This document shows positions 4,625-63,844 of a stretch of DNA of 64,000 nt, in pieces. Numbering within the stretch: the stretch's first letter is position 1; each line of letters starts with the position of its first letter. The DNA lies in IMG/VR virus record IMGVR_UViG_3300021431_000002. One strand, written 5' to 3'. Source of the DNA: a virus. Taxonomy: Duplodnaviria > Heunggongvirae > Uroviricota > Caudoviricetes. A model generated the notes under the pieces. It did not search any database and had not been told where the DNA came from. It worked only from the letters and a program-made list of their open reading frames with translations. The position numbers and the translations under genes are program-made.

Positions 4625-6031
4625 TCATACCGTTAGGCTCTTTAATTTATTTTCAACAATCTCAAATGCTTCATCTTTAGTCATATTAGGATTTTCAAAA
4701 TATGCTTCTTTAACAGCCTCTAAAAGTATTCCAATATTTGGTCCACTTTTTAAATGAAATTCCTTCAAAATATCGTCTCCAGAGATAGGAAGTTTAACAT
4801 TTGCTGCTTTTTCAGCATCTTCCATTTCCTCTATTCTATTGAGAATATCAAGAACTTGCCGTTTTTTCTTACCAAAGGTGCAATAAAGATTATTGGCGTT
4901 CATTAGGTCAGCAGTTGCCCCCAAATCATCACCAGTTAAGTTGATAAATTTTCTAATCTTCTTATCTGGCGGTAATACGCCATCGGCATAACTTGCAAAA
5001 CCTCTATGATGCTTAATGGCTGTTTCAACAGATTTGATGATATAATTAGGGTATTTCATGTCCTTCAAGTCGCTTGCAGCAATTTCTGCACTAAACTTAT
5101 CTGGCATCACATCCCTACGTTTCTCTGTTATAATTCTACCAACATCATGGAACAAAGCAGCCAATCTATTTTCAAGATATGGTTGAACAGTATCTAGCAC
5201 ATTCATTGTATGGTCAAATGTGCTAACCATAGGATTCCTTGACTCATAGGCGTAGGTTGTATCATAAATGTCTGGCATCACTCTATGCAAAATGCCACAG
5301 AAATACATTTTCCGAATACCGATACTTGGTTTTTCACAAAGTAGAATCTTGGATATTTCCTCACTGATTCTTTCTTGTGAAATGATTTGAATACGGTGCG
5401 CATTTTTAACCATCCCTAACCAAGTGTTTTTTTCAATATCCCAACCGAATCTAGTTGAAAAACGAATTACACGTAGGATTCTCAATGGGTCATCATTGAA
5501 CGTAACATCTGGGTCAGTTGGAGTCTTTATTACTTGATTTACTAAGTCATCTATAGAGCCGTTAAAATCATGTATTTTCTCTGTGCTGATGTTATAATAC
5601 AGAGAATTGATGGTAAGGTCACGCCTTTTTGCATCCTCTTCAAGACTTCCGAATACAGTTTCTGGGTTTCTGCTTTCCTTGTGGTACTGTTCCTTTCTAG
5701 TTTGGACACATTCAATCTCTATATCTTTGAATTCATCGTTCTTGAACAATTGGAACTTCGCAGTTCCATAGTTTTCAAACACTACTGGATTAGTATTCTG
5801 AATAAAACACTGGTGTTTTATTGCCATATATACAGCAAACAGCATTCCACCGTTTTTCATTTCAACAACGATGTCAATGTCTTTAATGGGTAATCCTAAC
5901 AATGCATCACGCACACAACCGCCAACTAAATATACTTTCCCTTCAAAATGGGTGTTTTTGATTGACGCTTGTATGAGGTCAACTAAGTGTTTGATTCTAT
6001 CATCAACTTTTTTAAATAATAGTTCGTTCAT
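4625..6031 (-). CDS. cca: CCA-adding enzyme / tRNA nucleotidyltransferase (PolyA_pol head domain plus HD domain)
   Basis: GGCVRDALLGLPIKDIDIVV head-domain signature. FHDVGR HD motif downstream. Confidence 0.75.
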   Translation of the reverse strand: MNELLFKKVDDRIKHLVDLIQASIKNTHFEGKVYLVGGCVRDALLGLPIKDIDIVVEMKNGGMLFAVYMAIKHQCFIQNTNPVVFENYGTAKFQLFKNDEFKDIEIECVQTRKEQYHKESRNPETVFGSLEEDAKRRDLTINSLYYNISTEKIHDFNGSIDDLVNQVIKTPTDPDVTFNDDPLRILRVIRFSTRFGWDIEKNTWLGMVKNAHRIQIISQERISEEISKILLCEKPSIGIRKMYFCGILHRVMPDIYDTTYAYESRNPMVSTFDHTMNVLDTVQPYLENRLAALFHDVGRIITEKRRDVMPDKFSAEIAASDLKDMKYPNYIIKSVETAIKHHRGFASYADGVLPPDKKIRKFINLTGDDLGATADLMNANNLYCTFGKKKRQVLDILNRIEEMEDAEKAANVKLPISGDDILKEFHLKSGPNIGILLEAVKEAYFENPNMTKDEAFEIVENKLKSLTV

Positions 6032-23690: not shown

Positions 23691-23704
23691 TAAAACAAGA
23701 AGCA

Positions 23705-23776
23705 TTAAAGGTGGGATTCGAACCCACAAAAGATAGTTTTGCAGACTATTGAGTATACCATTCCTCCACAGAGTTA
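23705..23776 (-). tRNA. tRNA-Cys(GCA) candidate. Acceptor stem poorly paired
   Basis: Anticodon arm ATAGT-CTGCAAA-ACTAT. T-arm GTGGG-TTCGAAT-CCCAC. Confidence 0.4.
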
Positions 23777-23793
23777 CTTGCTGTATGCTTCTT

Positions 23794-36410: not shown

Positions 36411-36607
36411 TTTTGCGCCTTGTTTATCTTAGGTCAATAATATAGAATAGGTTTACCTATACCAACCATAAAGGTATCCTCTTATCCATCAAGGAACTAG
36501 GGTAAGGGGCTAATCCTCGCACCGCATTACTGCTTCACCTACCATTTCTTACGTGGTTTGTGCTGTCTTACCTATTTCAGTACTTCACTTGAGTACACCA
36601 GCCGTAG

Positions 36608-36698
36608 TGAGCATAGTAGGATTCGAACCCACGATGAACTTTCTCAAGCCCATAACGGTTTTAGGGACCGCCACAATCGACCACTCTGCCATATGCCC
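36608..36698 (-). tRNA. class-II tRNA with a CUA anticodon loop (CCCTAAA): candidate amber-suppressor tRNA
   Basis: Acceptor GGGCATA/TATGCTC plus A73. D-arm GCA-GAGTGGTCGAT-TGT. Anticodon arm GCGGT-CCCTAAA-ACCGT. Long variable arm. T-arm GTGGG-TTCGAAT-CCTAC. Confidence 0.45.
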
Positions 36699-38973: not shown

Positions 38974-40185
38974 ATGAGAATTACTTATTGCAGGGACTGA
39001 CGGATTCGAACCGCCATCGTTTATTAACAGTTAAAGGCACACTCTGTTCCGAGGTCGAGAGTGCTTTATTCCTTAAAGCGCAACAAATTACTTTACCATT
39101 AAGCTAAATCCCTATATAAATACAAAAGACTGAGAATGTTGTCTTATTGTTAATGCCATTTTACAAGCGTTGGAACTTGCTATTCACACGTCACCTTACG
39201 ATGAACGTAGACATCATGCACGGAAGTCTTGAGAAGACAACCAAGAATCTTACTAGTTTAAACCTTGCGGTGCAGCATCATAGCTTTCAGTTCTTCGCCA
39301 AGCTCTTGCGGATTCATAGGATGCCTCCTATTAACTCAGACGAGTACTTTTACACGCTCATTGAATTCCTTGCGAGTCCTCAATGTCTCAATATTTCATG
39401 AGAATAAGTGCATTTTAGCTGCCTAGTGTCGCACACTTTTGCTTAAATTGATTTTTGAATCATATTTATGTTCCGTAGGCGGTTTGGAAGACGAGGTGCG
39501 ACTAAGGACATCTGTAACTTTTGGCTACAGCCCATCCAATCGCCTCCCTGTGCTAGCTCACCACAAGCTATTCACTATTATACACCATCACCTCATATGA
39601 GTTCTTACACATTTCTATGTAAGACTAGTGCATAACTGAGTACAACACGCCAACTGGTGATTATTGCATCATACTCCATACAGTAATCTATCGTGTCACC
39701 ACTCATTCAAAGATTCCTCACCCTTGAAAATATACAACTTTGGTGTTACCCACATTGTATACCGTACTGTATGCTTTTCAGTGAAATACATGAGAGTTTC
39801 TCATATATCTGCAACGTTTACCGCTAGTACACGTCACATTTATCCCATCACTGGATTATCCTTCCATCTGGCTACGAAAGCTAGCCATTAGCCTCATATC
39901 TTTCGCAAGATATTTCCTCATGGAAATTGGCTTATTTCTTGAGTTTTTCATTCGTTTTCAGTTTATTATAATAGGTAAACTGCTTCCTCTTTAGAGGTGG
40001 GTTCATATCCCAAGCTCCTATTTTTTAGCCCTACATCGAATTTTTTTACCCAATACTTACTTTTTTCTAGTACACGTTCTCTAGAATATGGTTCCCGAAG
40101 TTACCATTGCTATGGATTGTTTAACCACATAAAACCCATTTTTACCGTTGTCTACGGCACGAAAAGGCATATCTCGTTGGTTAGA

Positions 40186-40320
40186 GCAGATTTGCACTGC
40201 TGAAGCTTCCGAAGAAACACATCAAGCACGAACTTGATGCCCATTTGTCTACATCGTCATTGCTGACGTTCTCCTCTGGTACTAACCAAAAGGTGGTTTT
40301 TTGACTTGTCCACCACAAGG
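40186..40320. repeat. about 135-bp direct repeat, copy 1 (copy 2 at 40481..40620)
   Basis: gatttgcact..gaag..tccgaaga..cacatcaagcacgaacttgatgcccatttgtctacatcgtcattgctgacgttctcctctggta..ccaaaaggtggtttttt. Contains the CATCAAG/CTTGATG hairpin. Confidence 0.7.
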
Positions 40321-40480
40321 TATAGTGTGTAGTATTGTAAAGGCTAATTCATTTTGCAGAACTAATTTAATGGTAAAGGACATCTGCTATGTTTCATACA
40401 GTTGTGTGTTTGTCGCAACCTCACTTTCCTCGCCAACCTTTACTGCCGATTGCACCTGAGCGTTTATACTACATTTGTTG

Positions 40481-40620
40481 GTAGAGCTAGATTTGCACTA
40501 GCGAAGACTCCGAAGAGCCACATCAAGCACGAACTTGATGCCCATTTGTCTACATCGTCATTGCTGACGTTCTCCTCTGGTATCTACCAAAAGGTGGTTT
40601 TTTAACTTGCCCACCACAAG
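40481..40620. repeat. about 135-bp direct repeat, copy 2
   Basis: See 40186..40320. Confidence 0.7.
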
Positions 40621-40698: not shown

Positions 40699-40803
40699 AT
40701 ATTATGTATTTAAATCGGAAACTTTTTCTAAACGTTTCAAAGTGACAATTTGATGTTAAGAATAGTTTGCTGTGAGTTTCCTTTATTGTTTTCAAATCAA
40801 CAA

Positions 40804-41452: not shown

Positions 41453-41965
41453 AACTAAATTGTTTTTTTACTTTAAAAATAATCAGCTACACGAACCTCT
41501 TCAATGTACTTATGAAAGATTCCCTTCCATACATGTTATACAGATTAACGCATGACTTATATCCTAATATAGCCTAACTTTACTGTAAAAGTTTACTTCA
41601 TCATCCAACCCTGACTGATTATTTAGTGGACTTGCGCAGAGTCGAACTGCGGTCCAAACAACCATTCCATAAGAAATTATACAAGCTTTGATTTGGAAAG
41701 TTGACAGCAAACGCTGCCCTCACCGCTACCTTATTTTGCGAAAACAAGGAAAACTATACAAAGATGACTAAAGAATAATGCTAGGGTGTTCTGTTCCTAA
41801 GAGCCTAGCCTCTCGGCTTACATTACGCAGCTATAGCGTACTCGTAAGCAGGAGAATCAACATTCTCGCCAGTTATATTTTTTGCTATTGAAGTGTATGC
41901 CCACTGCTTGTTTCTTACCAAATGCATTGCTGTCAAATCCATTACAAGCCCATGATAAAAAATTG

Positions 41966-42740: not shown

Positions 42741-42846
42741 TATAAATATTGTTTTTTGTTAAAAAAAAATACGGAAACATGTTTTTAGAAATCAAAATTA
42801 AAAGTTTTGCTCTTAAAAATTCCTAATATTTGCTGTATGTTTCCTT

Positions 42847-42925
42847 AGTGCTTGTGATAGGATTTGAACCTACTGTACCCCACTATAAGATGGCGTGTGT
42901 CTTCCAATATATCACCCCTCAAGCA
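42847..42925 (-). tRNA. tRNA, anticodon unresolved (loop CTTATA)
   Basis: Acceptor GCTTGAG/CACAAGC. T-arm GTAGG-TTCAAAT-CCTAT. Confidence 0.35.
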
Positions 42926-47129: not shown

Positions 47130-47425
47130 CCAAATTCATTAACTTTTTTTTAGAAAAAAAGGGTACATTAAACCAACATTTCAACCCCTCCAAATGTCAT
47201 AGCTAAAAATGCGGAGGGGGTAGGAATCGAACCTACGTTACACAAATTAACAGTCTGCTTGAAAAAAATAATTTTGCTGTGTGTACCCACTAAATATGTT
47301 TCCAAAGTAACCTTCCCTGACATCGAACCTTTGGCACATTATTACAGACTAATGCGTTCTGTTCTAGATTCCTCACCGTATAAAAATGCATCTGTATACC
47401 TAATATGCGGCTTCTCCTAGTATCG

Positions 47426-52442: not shown

Positions 52443-52627
52443 AATTGTTAAACTAGGTCTCCGCTCTTATCGGAAGTTACGCACAGAGTTGCTTGCTAAA
52501 TATTGGCGTTGCAACGGTCTTAGCAATTAATCTCTTCCATTCTAGAAATGGAGTCACAGAAACTCAGCGTTTACTATTCAAATGACCTTTTAAAAACCAA
52601 ATTCACGCATTGTTATTACCTAGTTTG

Positions 52628-52656
52628 TGGGGAGGGGTGGACTCGAACCACCATTA
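52628..52656 (-). other. tRNA 3' half (T-arm plus 3' acceptor) directly downstream of the HNH gene
   Basis: GGTGG-TTCGAGT-CCACC followed by CCTCCCC. The matching 5' piece GGGGAGGTAGCAAAGATGG lies at 53233-53251, beyond the HNH gene. Confidence 0.45.
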
Positions 52657-52659
52657 CCC

Positions 52660-53136
52660 TTATGTTTTATTTTTACCACAATATGTTTCTGTTTGAGAAT
52701 GGCAGTTAGGGCATAATAGTCTTAAATTTTCTATCCTATTATCTCTATTATTGCCGTTAATGTGGTCTAATTGTAAAACTATTTTTTTACCCAACCATTC
52801 ATTAATACCACATATTGCACATTTATATTCTATTAAATTTGACTTTAGAATTCTTAGTTTAAGACGAGTCATATTTGTATATATACTATCTTTTACTAAA
52901 ATTTTTTCTAAAGGAAATGTTTCATTTTTGGCTAAACCATTAGATTTACCTAAAAAATGAGAAAAACTAATATTATTCTCTCTAAGATATTTTTTCAACG
53001 GTTGATACGAGTTTCCTCTATTCGCAGTATAGCCTAGTTTTCTCATAACTTCAGCGAATGTTTTGCTATTTTGCACAATATTAGATAACTCTTCTTTATC
53101 AATTTTTTTATAATAACATTCCATTATTATTTTCAA
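52660..53136 (-). CDS. HNH homing-type endonuclease, inserted between the two halves of a Tyr-like tRNA
   Basis: LQLDHINGNNRDNRIENLRLLCPNCH HNH motif. Flanked by tRNA half sequences. Confidence 0.75.
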   Translation of the reverse strand: MKIIMECYYKKIDKEELSNIVQNSKTFAEVMRKLGYTANRGNSYQPLKKYLRENNISFSHFLGKSNGLAKNETFPLEKILVKDSIYTNMTRLKLRILKSNLIEYKCAICGINEWLGKKIVLQLDHINGNNRDNRIENLRLLCPNCHSQTETYCGKNKT

Positions 53137-56833: not shown

Positions 56834-56860
56834 ATAAAAAAAAACAGGAAACGTGTTTTT

Positions 56861-56925
56861 ATACTGTCGCATTTAGCCACTCTGCCAACCTTCAAAGAAG
56901 GTGTGGGATTCGAACCCACGAAACC
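56861..56925 (-). other. tRNA 3' half followed immediately by a class-II tRNA 5' half (permuted or fragment arrangement)
   Basis: On the minus strand: GTGGG-TTCGAAT-CCCAC ACCTTC-TTT-GAAGGT TG GCA GAGTGGCTAAA TGC. No 5' half lies upstream of the T-arm. Confidence 0.35.
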
Positions 56926-57070
56926 ATACGGTAACGGTTTTCAGAACAAATATTGCTGCTTGTTTCCTTTGTAAAAAAACTACTGAGTAATTGTAGGGGC
57001 GATGGGTAATGCTCCCACTATCTCATGCTTATAAGGCATGTGCTTTTACTGTCTAAGCTACACCCCAATC

Positions 57071-57714: not shown

Positions 57715-57756
57715 AGTTTATCCATTTAAAAAAAGGAAACGTTTGTTGTTTATTTT

Positions 57757-57880
57757 TAGTGCTCTATCCAACTGAGCTACCGCCACATTATCGTTATAAA
57801 ATTGAGTGGCGGACAGGACTCGAACCTGCGACCCCTAGCTTGGAATGCTTTTTAAACGATATACATTGCTGTACGTTTCC
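57757..57880 (-). other. circularly permuted-looking tRNA module. The T-arm plus 3' acceptor (57806-57830) is followed 15 nt downstream by a canonical 5' acceptor plus D-arm (57757-57790)
   Basis: Minus strand reads ...GCAGG-TTCGAGT-CCTGT CCGCCAC T [15 nt] GTGGCGG TA GCTC AGTTGGATA GAGC A. The two acceptor strands are perfectly complementary. Confidence 0.4.
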
Positions 57881-57886
57881 ACGTTG

Positions 57887-57959
57887 AGCGAGTGAACGGA
57901 ATCGAACCGTCATATGAACCTTGGAGGGGTCCCATTCTAACCATTGAACTACACTCGCA
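57887..57959 (-). tRNA. tRNA-Gly(UCC)
   Basis: Acceptor GCGAGTG/CACTCGC. Anticodon arm GGACC-CCTCCAA-GGTTC. T-arm GACGG-TTCGATT-CCGTT. Confidence 0.7.
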
Positions 57960-58209: not shown

Positions 58210-59238
58210 TTACTGAACTGTCTTAACAACAGCAGACCTACCACTCTCGACACTTACGCCCTTGCCAGCGAAACTATTAACTTTCACTCCACGATTTGAT
58301 AGGTAATCGGCAACAACTGCTGCTCTCTTCTCAGAGAGACGCTGGTTAAACTCTTTTGAACCATCAGGACTTGCTGTTGCAGTAACATCTACAACTGCAT
58401 TATCCCCAACTTGGTTAAGAATGAACTTAGCCTCATTTGTCAATACTGAGCTTGCTGTGGCAAATGTAACAACCCAAGAGTCATTTCCATTCTTTACCAC
58501 TGCTGCATCAGTAGTTGGGGCATTCACTTCAACAATCTTCTCAACAACCTTTGGTTCACGTTTCTCACACTCATCAAGTCTTCCACGCAGATAGTTAATC
58601 TCGTTAGCCATTGCGCCAACATCGTAGGTCTTGAAATGATGTGTTCCGTTGCTAGTCTTAAAATGATATACATAAGTCAAGTTAAGTGCCAACTGTGCGC
58701 CCTTCTTATTGAACTGAATTGCGTCAATCTTATGCAAGTTCCAATACACCGCTGGTGTCAACACCAAACTATGTGCCTTATTCTTACCAATGTTAAACGC
58801 AAGGTCAAGACCAGTCTTTGCAGTTAGACTATTCTCAGATACGTTCCATGCATGAAGCCATCCAAGACCCGCAATGGCGCTAACCTCAAACACTCGTGGA
58901 GTACCCTTGTAGCCCCAAAAAAGGTTTGACAGATTCAATGCGCCATTAAGTCCGATATTAGTTGCCTTCACAGCGGTCTTAAGGTCACTGAAATGATTGT
59001 CGTTGAGTATGGCAAGACCCTCAATCTGGAATCCGATTACTGGTGTAATATCCTTAGTAATCTTCAAACCAACGTTTGTGTTCAAAGGGAACACGGAATT
59101 GAAATCAAGTGGTGTAGATACACCAGCGGTAACACCAACCCCAACGTTATCGAAAACGTTACTATTCTCTGTCGCAATCTGTGCATTTGCACTCACAACG
59201 GCACAAATAAGTGCCAACATTAAAAAAATTTTCTTCAT
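58210..59238 (-). CDS. OmpA-family outer-membrane protein with a signal peptide
   Basis: MKKIFLMLALICAVVSANAQ signal. C-terminal OmpA-like domain (SEKRAAVVADYLSNRGV...). Confidence 0.6.
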   Translation of the reverse strand: MKKIFLMLALICAVVSANAQIATENSNVFDNVGVGVTAGVSTPLDFNSVFPLNTNVGLKITKDITPVIGFQIEGLAILNDNHFSDLKTAVKATNIGLNGALNLSNLFWGYKGTPRVFEVSAIAGLGWLHAWNVSENSLTAKTGLDLAFNIGKNKAHSLVLTPAVYWNLHKIDAIQFNKKGAQLALNLTYVYHFKTSNGTHHFKTYDVGAMANEINYLRGRLDECEKREPKVVEKIVEVNAPTTDAAVVKNGNDSWVVTFATASSVLTNEAKFILNQVGDNAVVDVTATASPDGSKEFNQRLSEKRAAVVADYLSNRGVKVNSFAGKGVSVESGRSAVVKTVQ

Positions 59239-59605: not shown

Positions 59606-59874
59606 AATATTATCATAAAAACGGATACTTTTGTTTTAATATACCAATACCCACGAATGGGTGCTTAAACCACATGTTTAGCTTGGATTCGAACCAAGAA
59701 ATTGTAACAAAGTTACATTGCTGTAAGTATCCTTAGTTGATGGTGTGGGATTCGAACCCACGTTGCCGATAGGCTGCGTTCCTACAGAATTTATTCACCT
59801 ATCCATAGGATTCACTACTCTCTAGTTTCTTTTAGTACCGCCTTGCGCAATCCTCTTACTGAACCACCAATTTG

Positions 59875-59947: not shown

Positions 59948-60070
59948 ATAAAACGATGCAAGTGATAAGCCTCGCAGTTTTTTTATTTAACGTGGAGAAC
60001 CTTGGATACTTCCTGCGTTACCAAACTCCATTCCTACCCTATGATTTTTGGAAACATTTTTTTCCATCTT

Positions 60071-60130
60071 AGCTACCTCCCCAAGTTTAATAATTTGTGG
60101 GGAGGGTTGGACTCGAACCAACGACCCTTA
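60071..60130 (-). other. Tyr-like tRNA 3' half followed by a 5' fragment (permuted arrangement). A repeat of the pieces flanking the HNH gene at 52628/53245
   Basis: GTTGG-TTCGAGT-CCAAC CCTCCCC A [16 nt] GGGGAGG TA GCTAAGATGG. Confidence 0.4.
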
Positions 60131-60373
60131 AATTATTAGTTTAATGCTATACCCTTTAATACTTGCTGTATGTTTCCTTGTATCATTTAATCATATAAAC
60201 CTCCGTGTGTTGGTTCATATTCTCCACCACTTTTATTAGTTACAGCATCCACCATGTGTTGGTTCGTACTCACCACCTCCGTAGAGGTATGGGTCTTCAT
60301 CATCGTGCATCATGAGGTTGCTATAATCATTCTTATCAACTGCTGCCATAATAATTCTTTTTTAAATTACTTT

Positions 60374-61867: not shown

Positions 61868-61963
61868 ATTTAAAAAACTTGGACAATTTACCGCCACTGA
61901 TGGATTGGGCTTGGCTTTTCAAGGTCACGCTTCCAAGTTATATGTCGGAATCATTAAAACTAA

Positions 61964-62036
61964 GGTGGTGCAGGATTCGAACCTACGTTCTCTTGGTAAA
62001 ATCCAAGGCTTTAAACCACTAAGCTAACCGTCTGGA
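61964..62036 (-). tRNA. tRNA-like gene with a 6-nt anticodon loop (CTTGG-ATTTTA-CCAAG)
   Basis: D-arm GCTT-AGTGGTTTA-AAGC. T-arm GTAGG-TTCGAAT-CCTGC. Acceptor has two mismatches. Confidence 0.3.
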
Positions 62037-62068
62037 GTTTATATCAATTGCTGTTAGATTCCTTTTTG

Positions 62069-62833: not shown

Positions 62834-63484
62834 AACGGCATATGTTTTTTAAATAAAGGGAAGTAGTTTCAAATCAAGCAAACAAACCAAAGTACCCTCT
62901 ATGGTTGTTATGACATTCTCATATGCCTTGGGTAATCTGCATCAAATGACATATCTCGAAAGACTTGCTTCCCAACAAGGCTTACATAGTTTGAGTGACG
63001 CTTTGCGACTCTCAGTGACTAATAAGCTCCATTCCTTAAATGGGTAAACCACACCACAAATAGATAGTCAATCATTGAGATTCGTGAAATGTGGGCTTGC
63101 ACCTTCTATACTACTCTCTAGACTCCTCATATAGACCCTTATACCCATTTTGTCAGCCAAGGCAGATTCGAACTACCACCGTTATTTCTAACGCCACCAA
63201 GCCTTCCCATATGCACTATAGCTTGAAACCTCCTAGGCAAATACTAGGTGTGCTACCATTACACCATTGACTGAAATTTGCTATGTTGGATGGATTCGAA
63301 CCATCGTAGAAAACGAAAGATTGTTTTCGAGTCATATCTAACGTGGGTCTCAATGTTTAAAGTCTCTGCTAGCAACGACTCCCTCGTTTCATTGACGGTT
63401 TCTCTCATTTGTCCCAGACATGGCATTAAAACTTGCAATTTTTTTCAAACACTCCATGTCCATTCCTCTGATACAACATAGTTG

Positions 63485-63557: not shown

Positions 63558-63844
63558 ATGAAAACTGAAACCCTAGCTAGTAACGTATTTTAACAGCATC
63601 CTTACCTATTCTCTCAACCTCTCAGTGACGTTGGGCAATTTAGTCAATCAACGTGGTTTCAGTTTATACTGAAAGTTGAAATTCTCATGAGTATAGTCTA
63701 TCATGTCATTCACTCAAGCTTTACTGAGCCGAATCGTAGTGCTATAATTTCAACTTTATATTATAAGGGAACATTTAACTGTACTTTTAAAACCCAAATT
63801 TAATTACTTGTTAATTCAAAATACTTGCTGTGTGTTCCCACTTG

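Follow-up and report, generated by a model that had tools for sequence, protein, structure and literature searches.

Within a 64,000-nucleotide (nt) stretch of a Caudoviricetes virus genome (IMG/VR record IMGVR_UViG_3300021431_000002; the whole stretch is called the window here) we found at least ten related elements in an array of transfer RNA (tRNA) genes, every one of them on the minus strand. We conclude that each of these elements probably encodes a small, structured non-coding RNA of the Y type with YrlA-like architecture. The RNAs have a conserved fold and a modular design, in which a constant end module frames a variable interior. They show tRNA mimicry that extends to a look-alike of the anticodon arm, and across many phage lineages the RNA is genetically coupled to a protein with a Ro60 fold. 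The window lies in a 408-kb contig (ENA ERZ12302815 NODE_9) with near-identical contigs in rumen-type metagenomes, and among GenBank phages no close relative was found beyond single tRNAs.

A complete tRNA mimic with the T arm ahead of the D arm

A sequence-only reading of this DNA had reported a T arm and a 3' acceptor strand standing ahead of their own 5' acceptor strand and D arm, and our reading of the minus strand at 57829-57761 confirmed this order. The T stem strand GCAGG (57829-57825) is followed by the T loop TTCGAGT and the second T stem strand CCTGT (57817-57813). The acceptor strand CCGCCAC (57812-57806) is then separated from its complement GTGGCGG (57786-57780) by a loop of 19 nt, rather than by the 15-nt linker first reported, and after TA the D arm GCTC-AGTTGGATA-GAGC follows directly (57777-57761). 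As the earlier reading had also stated, no 5' half lies upstream of the T arm: there is no D arm upstream and no T arm downstream. This absence, together with the mutually complementary and covarying acceptor strands, ruled out a dimeric-tRNA artefact. Neither ARAGORN nor Rfam called a tRNA at this site, and the two programs found 32-36 ordinary tRNAs and one transfer-messenger RNA (tmRNA) on the same (minus) strand of the window.

What the earlier reading had overlooked is a long-range closing stem, GGAAACGT (57880-57873) with ACGTTTCC (57742-57735), and an ACAGCAA box just inside it. These delimit a complete Y-RNA-like tRNA mimic of 146 nt at 57735-57880 on the minus strand (covariance model R1, 100.6 bits; covariance model R2, 79.1 bits, E 4.7e-14; the training set of R2 is given below). 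Its 5' closing strand (57873-57880; GGAAACGU in the RNA-form listing) pairs with 57735-57742 and covaries in homologues. The ACAGCAA box (57866-57872), of which CAGCAA is invariant, stands where YrlA has GNCGAA and is the putative protein-binding module. The V hairpin AGC-AUUCCAA-GCU (57837-57849) mimics an anticodon arm, with a 7-nt loop and the 'anticodon' UCC. The T arm GCAGG-UUCGAGU-CCUGU (57813-57829) leads into the acceptor stem CCGCCAC ... GUGGCGG (57780-57812), which is closed by the 19-nt loop and has all 7 pairs compensated in homologues. The D arm GCUC-AGUUGGAUA-GAGC (57761-57777) precedes the 3' closing strand ACGUUUCC (57735-57742) and a U run (57728-57734). A further pairing, of UAG (57837-57835) with CUA (57759-57757), is the equivalent of tRNA positions 41-43 and 27-29. 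All helices were recovered in the minimum free energy (MFE) fold of this element (z = -2.6). The '3' half' thus comes before the '5' half' because the layout of the RNA is V hairpin, variable loop, T arm, closed acceptor stem, D arm.

The UCC of the AUUCCAA loop (57840-57846, minus strand) is also the triplet of a genuine tRNA-Gly(UCC) at 57886-57958 on the same strand, which ends 5 nt upstream of the element. This may be coincidence or a sign of origin.

Ten elements in the tRNA array

The window was searched for CAGCAA preceded by a strand whose complement occurs 40-200 nt downstream. A 6-bp stem beside CAGCAA gave a high background (mean of 3.8 hits with permuted hexamers), and therefore stems of at least 7 bp were used. 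By content the ten elements comprise five permuted tRNA-like ones, two built around a non-permuted tRNA-like core and three short ones that lack a tRNA part. In the window the features of membership are the closing stem, CAGCAA 0-3 nt after it, and an A-rich segment before the 3' strand. All ten closing stems have 7-9 bp; their sequences vary while complementarity is kept, with covarying stems GGAAACGT/ACGTTTCC, GGGTACA/TGTACCC, GGATACTT/AAGTATCC, AAGAAGCAT/ATGCTTCTT, GGAATC/GATTCC and GGGAACA/TGTTCCC. Single-sequence MFE folds contained the closing stem in 10/10 elements, the T arm in all seven that possess one, the acceptor hairpin in the permuted copies, and the D arm in the 57880 and 56968 elements only. 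A U-rich run follows the closing stem in six of the ten, with none after 60050, 40717 and 63767, and five begin 1-25 nt past a tRNA.

The sequence-only reading had seen the permuted order at three further sites. We found that the order does recur there, and that each site is the inner part of a larger element (56846-56968, 60050-60177 and 47161-47288). The arrangement is far above chance, since R2 scored the four sites at 79.1, 42.5, 53.7 and 46.4 bits (E 5e-14 to 2e-6). The element at 60050-60177 (minus strand; R1 64.7 bits; R2 53.7 bits over 60049-60178) has the stem GGAAACAU/AUGUUUCC, the V loop CUAAUAA, the acceptor strands CCUCCCC/GGGGAGG and a degenerate D arm. That at 56846-56968 (minus; R1 59.7, R2 42.5 bits) has the stem AGGAAAC/GUUUCCU and the acceptor hairpin ACCUUC/GAAGGU, and a strain variant of it in contigs L122 and L126 carries compensatory changes in the acceptor hairpin and the D stem. 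The element at 47161-47288 (minus; R1 50.9 bits; R2 46.4 bits over 47160-47289), with orthologues in L093, L182 and L214, combines the stem GGGUACA/UGUACCC with the V loop CUGUUAA, and a conserved UUGAAAUGUUGG replaces its D arm. The fifth permuted element, at 59623-59732 (minus; R1 42.1 bits; R2 37.3 bits over 59622-59733), has the stem GGAUACUU/AAGUAUCC and a T arm followed by divergent hairpins.

Two elements enclose a non-permuted core. At 61947-62062 (minus; R2 30.9 bits over 61946-62063) the stem GGAAUC/GAUUCC and ACAGCAA surround a tRNA-like core that ARAGORN called 'tRNA-???' at 61962-62033. At 23697-23793 (minus; R2 24.5 bits) a 9-bp stem, AAGAAGCAU/AUGCUUCUU, and ACAGCAA surround an acceptor-less core with D, anticodon and T arms, in which 23710-23769 matched positions 7-64 of the Rfam tRNA model. 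The three short elements, all on the minus strand, carry ACAGCAA within the stems GGGAACA/UGUUCCC (63767-63839; YrlB-like, z = -3.3), GGAAACAU/AUGUUUCC (42773-42844; R1 29.4 bits, U run after) and GGAAACU/AGUUUCC (40717-40781). A paralogue of the first lies just beyond the window (L121 8214-8293). Directly upstream of the second, at 42845-42868 on the minus strand, is a T-arm/acceptor-like segment, GTTCAAATCCTATCACAAGCACTA, at which no tRNA was called.

R2 also matched two degenerate relatives on the minus strand. One, at 52602-52701, has a T arm and the acceptor strand CCCUCCCCA, with ACAGAAA for ACAGCAA and the partner strand absent; the other, at 63240-63305, has a T arm then a D arm, with neither box nor closing stem.

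The fold is conserved in viral contigs beyond the window

A first scan of the collection used a 14-base pattern, and the 120 loci that it gave were largely chance matches; the roughly 24 matches with a closing GTTTCC were kept, and nearly all of these were true homologues. A second scan, of viral contigs, used the box followed by the T loop (ACAGCAA-N25-55-GGTTCGANTCC). It returned at least 174 matches, of which at least 114 have a closing stem directly 5' of the box, and these include at least 75 unique elements of 90-160 nt on contigs mostly of 50-420 kb. They follow a common plan: a closing stem of 7-10 bp, 1-3 nt (usually UA), CAGCAA, about 10 AU-rich nt and the V hairpin, then a variable loop, the T arm, the loop-closed acceptor stem, UA, the D arm, an A-rich run and the 3' strand. 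The box is single-stranded and lies just inside the end stem, opposite the A-rich 3' segment. CAGCAA is invariant in 80/80 validated elements and is preceded by A in 69 of the 80. A scan of bacterial genomes gave mostly chance or tRNA matches; the DUF2828 protein described below is present in 5/120 of those loci, all on contigs of metagenome-assembled genomes.

In an ordinary MAFFT alignment of 26 elements (A1) the ACAGCAA box, the T loop and D-arm residues are invariant. RNAalifold recovered from A1 the closing stem, the T stem, the acceptor hairpin and the D stem, and 18/22 pairs showed double compensatory changes. When pairs were counted, 96.5% of cells were paired as against 65.1% in shuffles, none of the 500 shuffles being as high. 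Cells with a double change numbered 177 versus 52 in shuffles, and controls with a slid partner strand were at most 47% paired. The acceptor hairpin was no selection criterion for A1, and 7/7 of its pairs covary.

An extra helix of 3-5 bp forms between the nt that immediately follow the D arm and those that immediately precede the variable loop, and is the equivalent of tRNA 27-29/41-43. It covaries among elements as CUA/UAG, ACG/CGU, ACAG/CUGU, AUAGA/UCUGU, GUA/UAC and GGAG/CUCC, and the V hairpin stacks below it. The V loop has 7 nt in 49/80 validated elements (28.5 expected from shuffles), with U at the second position (U33) in 73% and A at the sixth and seventh (A37, A38) in 69% each. The V hairpin is thus an anticodon-loop look-alike with varied 'anticodons'; in the GGGUAC subfamily the triplet differs among orthologues (GUU, GUC, UUU). 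The RNA as a whole is a mimic of the complete cloverleaf in which the acceptor end is closed and the chain ends exit through the 5' strand of the anticodon-like stem.

The permuted order is conserved in unrelated viral contigs, so that the option of tRNA remnants raised by the sequence-only reading fails. The permuted topology that this reading described is correct and under selection, and a tRNA gene of the Cyanidioschyzon type is not what the elements are.

A DUF2828 Ro60-like protein is linked to the RNAs in other phages

Clustering of open reading frames (ORFs) from RNA-bearing loci brought out a recurrent protein of about 480 amino acids (aa) with a weak Pfam match to DUF2828. A hidden Markov model (HMM) of this family detected it in 32/118 loci from the second scan; in every case it shares the strand of the RNA, and in most the two are no more than 500 nt apart. 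In the reverse test 80 viral loci were fetched by the protein, and 38 of these had CAGCAA and a T loop on the protein's strand while none had them on the opposite strand; the motif was at most 500 nt from the protein gene in 27/38. Covariance-model matches in the protein-fetched loci fell on the protein's strand in 44/44 cases.

The protein has more than 3000 relatives; the 120 that were listed all carry PF11443 (DUF2828) and PF25043, and all have uninformative names. When the DUF2828 alignment was run as a profile against PDB sequences, there was no match. The AlphaFold model (predicted local distance difference test, 87.5; predicted template-modelling score, 0.86) consists of helical repeats and an alpha/beta domain with a DxSGSM site. 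The top 11 PDB matches of this model in Foldseek were Ro60/TROVE proteins, matched over the full length (including 9kop, 1yvp, 2nvo and 9l5y), among them Xenopus Ro with RNA, Deinococcus Rsr and the Ro60 of Thermus phage phiLo, and isolated vWA domains came next. The relationship to Ro60 therefore appears by fold comparison only. Gene linkage and the predicted fold together suggest that the DUF2828 protein binds the RNA.

The training set of R2 held only elements adjacent to DUF2828 genes, and none from the lineage of the window. R2 scores the copies in the window between 79 and 24 bits, with the five tRNA-like ones at 79.1, 53.7, 46.4, 42.5 and 37.3 bits. Because R2 recognises them, the window copies belong to the DUF2828-linked RNA family.

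Elements in cultured phages

By tblastn the DUF2828 protein was found in 705 phage records, including Felixounavirus of E. coli and Salmonella, mycobacteriophages (as 'Ro-like RNA binding protein') and phages of Listeria, Staphylococcus, Campylobacter, Enterococcus, Bacillus, Vibrio, Aeromonas and Synechococcus. In mycobacteriophage Rose5 a tRNA-like RNA (R1 63.5 bits) lies 110 nt downstream of gp53, the 'Ro-like RNA binding protein' gene, as the middle one of three tandem CAGCAA-box elements in the order short, tRNA-like, short (MW822149.1 about 40286-40541; L327 4425-4680). The three fill an unannotated gap of 368 nt after the Ro-like gene, and a band-7-like gene lies 1 kb upstream. Phage humlepung has the RNA in a gap of its tRNA array, 1 kb downstream of a vWFA gene (R1 57.7 bits). 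In Bas63 (JohannRWettstein, MZ501086.1), a Felix O1-like phage, the RNA lies at 82781-82906 (72.7 bits), downstream of bas63_0130.

The gap in Bas63 (L329 2730-3004, equal to MZ501086.1 82748-83022) is annotated with two small hypothetical coding sequences on the minus strand. One of these, bas63_0137, overlaps with the Y-like RNA on the plus strand and was probably annotated in error; the other, bas63_0138, lies just beyond the RNA.

Short elements were also found in tandem beside the DUF2828 gene. Listeria phage LMTA-94 has three upstream of it, with an RtcB gene 1.3 kb downstream; Staphylococcus phage 6ec has three downstream, and Campylobacter phage F355 has two upstream. What stays constant in these RNAs is therefore the stem with the ACAGCAA box; a tRNA module may be present or lacking, a difference that YrlA and YrlB also show.

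Weighing the Y RNA interpretation against alternatives

The only non-tRNA family of Rfam that matched elements of the window is YrlA (RF02553), and it did so over the full length of the model, with 41.4 bits at 57728-57853 and 24.4 bits at 56838-56941. Several observations weigh against assigning the elements to Y RNAs. The YrlA scores in the window are below the Rfam gathering threshold of 69 bits, as are those of the homologues in other phages (33-41 bits). The canonical Ro60 motif GNCGAAN0-1G is absent, and (U)ACAGCAA occupies its position. The closing stem was a criterion in selecting the elements of A1, so that part of its covariation follows from sampling. What associates the protein with the RNA is gene linkage and fold alone, and Vibrio phage CZ01 encodes a DUF2828 protein and has no detected element within 3 kb. 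In the window itself the search for a partner covered the ten largest ORFs with Pfam, the family HMM (--max) and hhalign against ORFs of 478, 454 and 462 aa; within 84 kb of the 408-kb genome, made up of the window and roughly 20 kb of flanking sequence, no DUF2828-like or TROVE ORF was found, nor was one found in the fragments of the closest relatives that carry GGAAAC-type stems. A protein partner of these particular copies is thus hypothetical.

The alternative that survives best, and which we still regard as unlikely, is that the elements are free-standing tRNA decoys or sponges for anticodon nucleases, tRNA-targeting defences or tRNA-modifying enzymes, acting in this phage without a Ro60-like partner. 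The copy number of at least ten with no partner gene within 84 kb would fit such a role, as would V loops that follow the anticodon-loop consensus with triplets that vary among orthologues, and the RNA-repair genes in the neighbourhood. However, the invariant box and end stem are common to the protein-linked copies and to the short forms lacking a tRNA part, which points to a common bound factor more than to tRNA mimicry by itself. This alternative overlaps with the Y RNA interpretation, since a decoy could act within a particle.

We consider it very improbable that the elements punctuate the tRNA operon, in which case the stem and U run would terminate transcription or signal processing, and the tRNA-like part would be a landmark for RNase P or RNase Z. 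The U-rich run after six of ten closing stems and the start of five elements 1-25 nt after a tRNA are what such a signal would show. The closing stems, however, are AU-rich and enclose 50-130 nt, unlike intrinsic terminators, and a scan for sigma-70 promoters and terminators did not call them. There is no U run at 60050, 40717 or 63767. The box is left unexplained, as is the linkage to the Ro60-like protein in phages without tRNA arrays (Rose5, Staphylococcus 6ec).

True circularly permuted or split tRNA genes would require that the acceptor loop be cut by RNase P and 3' trimming, that CCA be added and that the outer ends be joined, for example by RtcB or an RNA ligase, to give a decoding tRNA. 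This agrees with the 3'-then-5' order of the halves, the complementary acceptor strands and the anticodon-arm-like hairpin with U33 and A37 in many copies. The genome has a CCA-adding enzyme, an RNA ligase and RtcB, and the YrlA of M. smegmatis is known to be cleaved by RNase P and to receive CCA (PMC4201824). Yet we find this account hardly tenable. The transcript ends form an uninterrupted helix of 7-9 bp with a single-stranded ACAGCAA box, and no bulge-helix-bulge is present. Joining the ends does not restore a canonical cloverleaf, because the end helix, ACAGCAA and A-rich spacers leave more than 30 extra nt in the 5' strand of the anticodon-like stem, and exact excision of these would be needed. 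Two of the five copies depart from a normal D arm, which is degenerate at 60050-60177 and replaced at 47161-47288, and the same 5' module occurs on short RNAs without any tRNA part. The V-loop triplets include AAU, a 7-nt loop is missing in many copies, and the family is linked to a Ro60-like protein.

That the elements have no function and arose by decay of, or recombination between, tandem tRNA paralogues, as the sequence-only reading had offered, is scarcely credible: a dense tRNA array with homing-endonuclease-like ORFs and the degenerate fragments at 52602-52701 and 63240-63305 would suit it, but it is refuted by the order, closing stem and box kept in upwards of 100 viral contigs that are unrelated and in cultured phages of several families, by compensatory changes in every helix and by strain variants that alter both sides of pairs.

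Proposed function and significance

If the elements are Y-type RNAs, the end stem and ACAGCAA would form the binding site for a Ro60-like protein, as GGUCCGA/CGAA does on Ro60. The tRNA-like module may present the shape of a tRNA to tRNA-handling enzymes or tRNA-targeting nucleases and so recruit or distract them. The resulting RNA-protein particle might act in RNA repair, surveillance or counter-defence during infection, a role suggested by the RNA ligase, CCA-adding enzyme and RtcB genes nearby and by the report that Bas63 gp130 counters Ppl. As five of the ten elements lie so close behind a tRNA, the RNAs are probably cut out of a polycistronic tRNA transcript, by the normal end-processing enzymes.

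A wider proposal is tentative, with a real but minority chance of being correct. ACAGCAA-box RNAs may be a very widespread and so far undescribed class of phage Y RNA, the missing partners of the DUF2828 Ro60-like proteins of more than 700 sequenced phages (Felix O1, Bas63, Listeria P100-like, Staphylococcus, Campylobacter and cluster E mycobacteriophages), with a swappable anticodon-arm mimic; in the megaphage they would have expanded to at least ten copies as decoys, sensors or repair scaffolds against tRNA-targeting immunity.

Both tRNA-mimicking Y RNAs and Ro60 proteins are already known from phages. In the literature searched neither an ACAGCAA-box RNA nor any RNA partner of a DUF2828 protein was found to be described, although some mycobacteriophage members may already stand in the phage YrlA list of Chen et al. 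2014. No Rfam 15 family matches these elements above threshold, and tRNA finders miss them as well. Our analysis replaces the permuted-tRNA-gene reading with a concrete and testable Y-RNA-like one. It also makes available sequence, structure and coordinates for candidate RNA partners of a large Ro60-fold family whose members have so far been annotated just as 'hypothetical', 'vWFA' or 'Ro-like RNA-binding'. The family is present in genetically tractable phages (hosts E. coli, Salmonella, Listeria, Staphylococcus and Mycobacterium), so that what Ro60/Y RNA particles of the bacterial type do in infection is directly testable. The anticodon-arm mimic and the at least ten paralogues in a 408-kb rumen megaphage suggest a link among Y RNAs, tRNA repair and tRNA-targeting immunity, which should interest the Ro60, Y RNA, phage tRNA-array and anti-defence fields.

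Genomic context of the array

The window encodes an RNA ligase (PF09414) at 1074-1979 and a CCA-adding enzyme with PolyA_pol head, RNA-binding and HD domains at 4625-6031, both on the minus strand, and an RtcB gene lies 5-7 kb beyond the high end of the window. Around the array these belong to a set of RNA-repair and NAD genes (RNA ligase, CCA-adding enzyme, RtcB, NAD synthase, NAPRTase and NADAR), the part outside the window being at L121 2126-3490, L121 374-1285 and L245 12039-14362. A 342-aa OmpA-domain protein with an N-terminal signal-like sequence is encoded at 58210-59238 (minus). Its gene keeps its place beside the elements in nine related contigs (L014, L033, L035, L089, L102, L115, L119, L121 and L214), which is probably synteny and not partnership.

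Other RNA features were found on the minus strand. A full-length, sub-threshold match to GOLLD RNA (RF02032; 85.7 bits, cut-off 150, E 6e-22) at 39127-39548 may be a divergent GOLLD-type large RNA, and lies within the tRNA array just downstream of a 132-nt direct repeat (40188-40319 and 40489-40620; 91% identical, 301 nt apart). The tmRNA at 41626-41951 lies inside the tRNA array and has the tag peptide GENVDSPAYEYAIAA. A tRNA with the anticodon CTA at 36607-36698, called 'Pyl' by ARAGORN and of the amber-suppressor type, hints at stop-codon reassignment or read-through in the megaphage. At 38991-39113 an Rfam tRNA match over 123 nt, to which no ARAGORN call corresponds, suggests a tRNA with a large insertion or intron.

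Comparison with known systems

In the permuted tRNA genes of algae a bulge-helix-bulge junction is cut by the splicing endonuclease, a circular intermediate is formed and a normal decoding tRNA results. The elements described here resemble those of Cyanidioschyzon merolae in having the 3' half upstream of the 5' half and acceptor strands joined by an intervening sequence. They differ in having a plain helix, a conserved box, long spacers, an optional loss of the D arm and a Ro60-fold partner protein.

In two-piece (permuted) tmRNA the T-arm/3' acceptor part likewise precedes the 5' acceptor part in the tRNA-like domain, whereas the present elements have no tag reading frame and no pseudoknots. 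A permuted tmRNA was considered at 60074-60122 and rejected, as RF04321 (tmRNA_permuted) gave 20.2 bits against a cut-off of 47 and no tag reading frame is present; the standard tmRNA at 41626-41951 (minus) is the sole one called by ARAGORN.

The closest likeness in plan is to YrlA. In that RNA the ends form a stem, a GNCGAAN0-1G box near the 5' end is taken as the Ro60 site, and the interior runs V, T, closed acceptor stem-loop (AS), D (PMC4201824). YrlA is encoded at most 4 kb from a Ro60 gene on the same strand, is accompanied by shorter YrlB-type siblings, and has been reported in 254 bacteria and 22 phages (PMC4201824). The V-T-AS-D layout was therefore already known from bacteriophages and is not unprecedented in a phage, as the sequence-only reading had supposed. 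The present elements share the paired ends with a conserved 5' box, the helix in which nt after the D arm pair with nt before the variable loop, and, in five of the ten window elements, the order V, T arm, AS, D. They also share the short non-tRNA siblings, the earlier report of such RNAs in phages, the RtcB-linked neighbourhood and, for the copies of other phages, a gene that adjoins on the same strand that of a ring-plus-vWA RNA-binding protein. In contrast to YrlA, the box is (U)ACAGCAA and not GNCGAAN0-1G/CGAA, and the Rfam scores are 24-41 bits against the cut-off of 69. The linked protein is DUF2828 plus PF25043 rather than TROVE, with no sequence-level match to a solved Ro60. The V hairpin here fits the anticodon-loop consensus, and at least ten paralogues are scattered in a tRNA array with no partner gene in the 84 kb examined.

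Two phage systems are nearer in setting. Thermus phage phiLo, with its Ro60 and the RNAs Yrl1 and Yrl2 (PMC12135203), likewise pairs a phage Ro60-fold protein with Y-like RNAs beside it; its Ro60 is of the TROVE type, however, and its RNAs have the CGAA motif. A 2024 preprint likens Bas63 gp130 to Ro60, reports that it acts against the Ppl defence, and names 'some tRNA genes' as possible Y RNAs (bioRxiv 10.1101/2024.10.10.617714). The Y RNAs were thus only conjectured among tRNA genes, whereas the element that we find at MZ501086.1 82781-82906 is no annotated tRNA. In both phiLo and Bas63 a role against host defence has been proposed, and gp130 is a member of the very protein family that is linked to the ACAGCAA-box RNAs.

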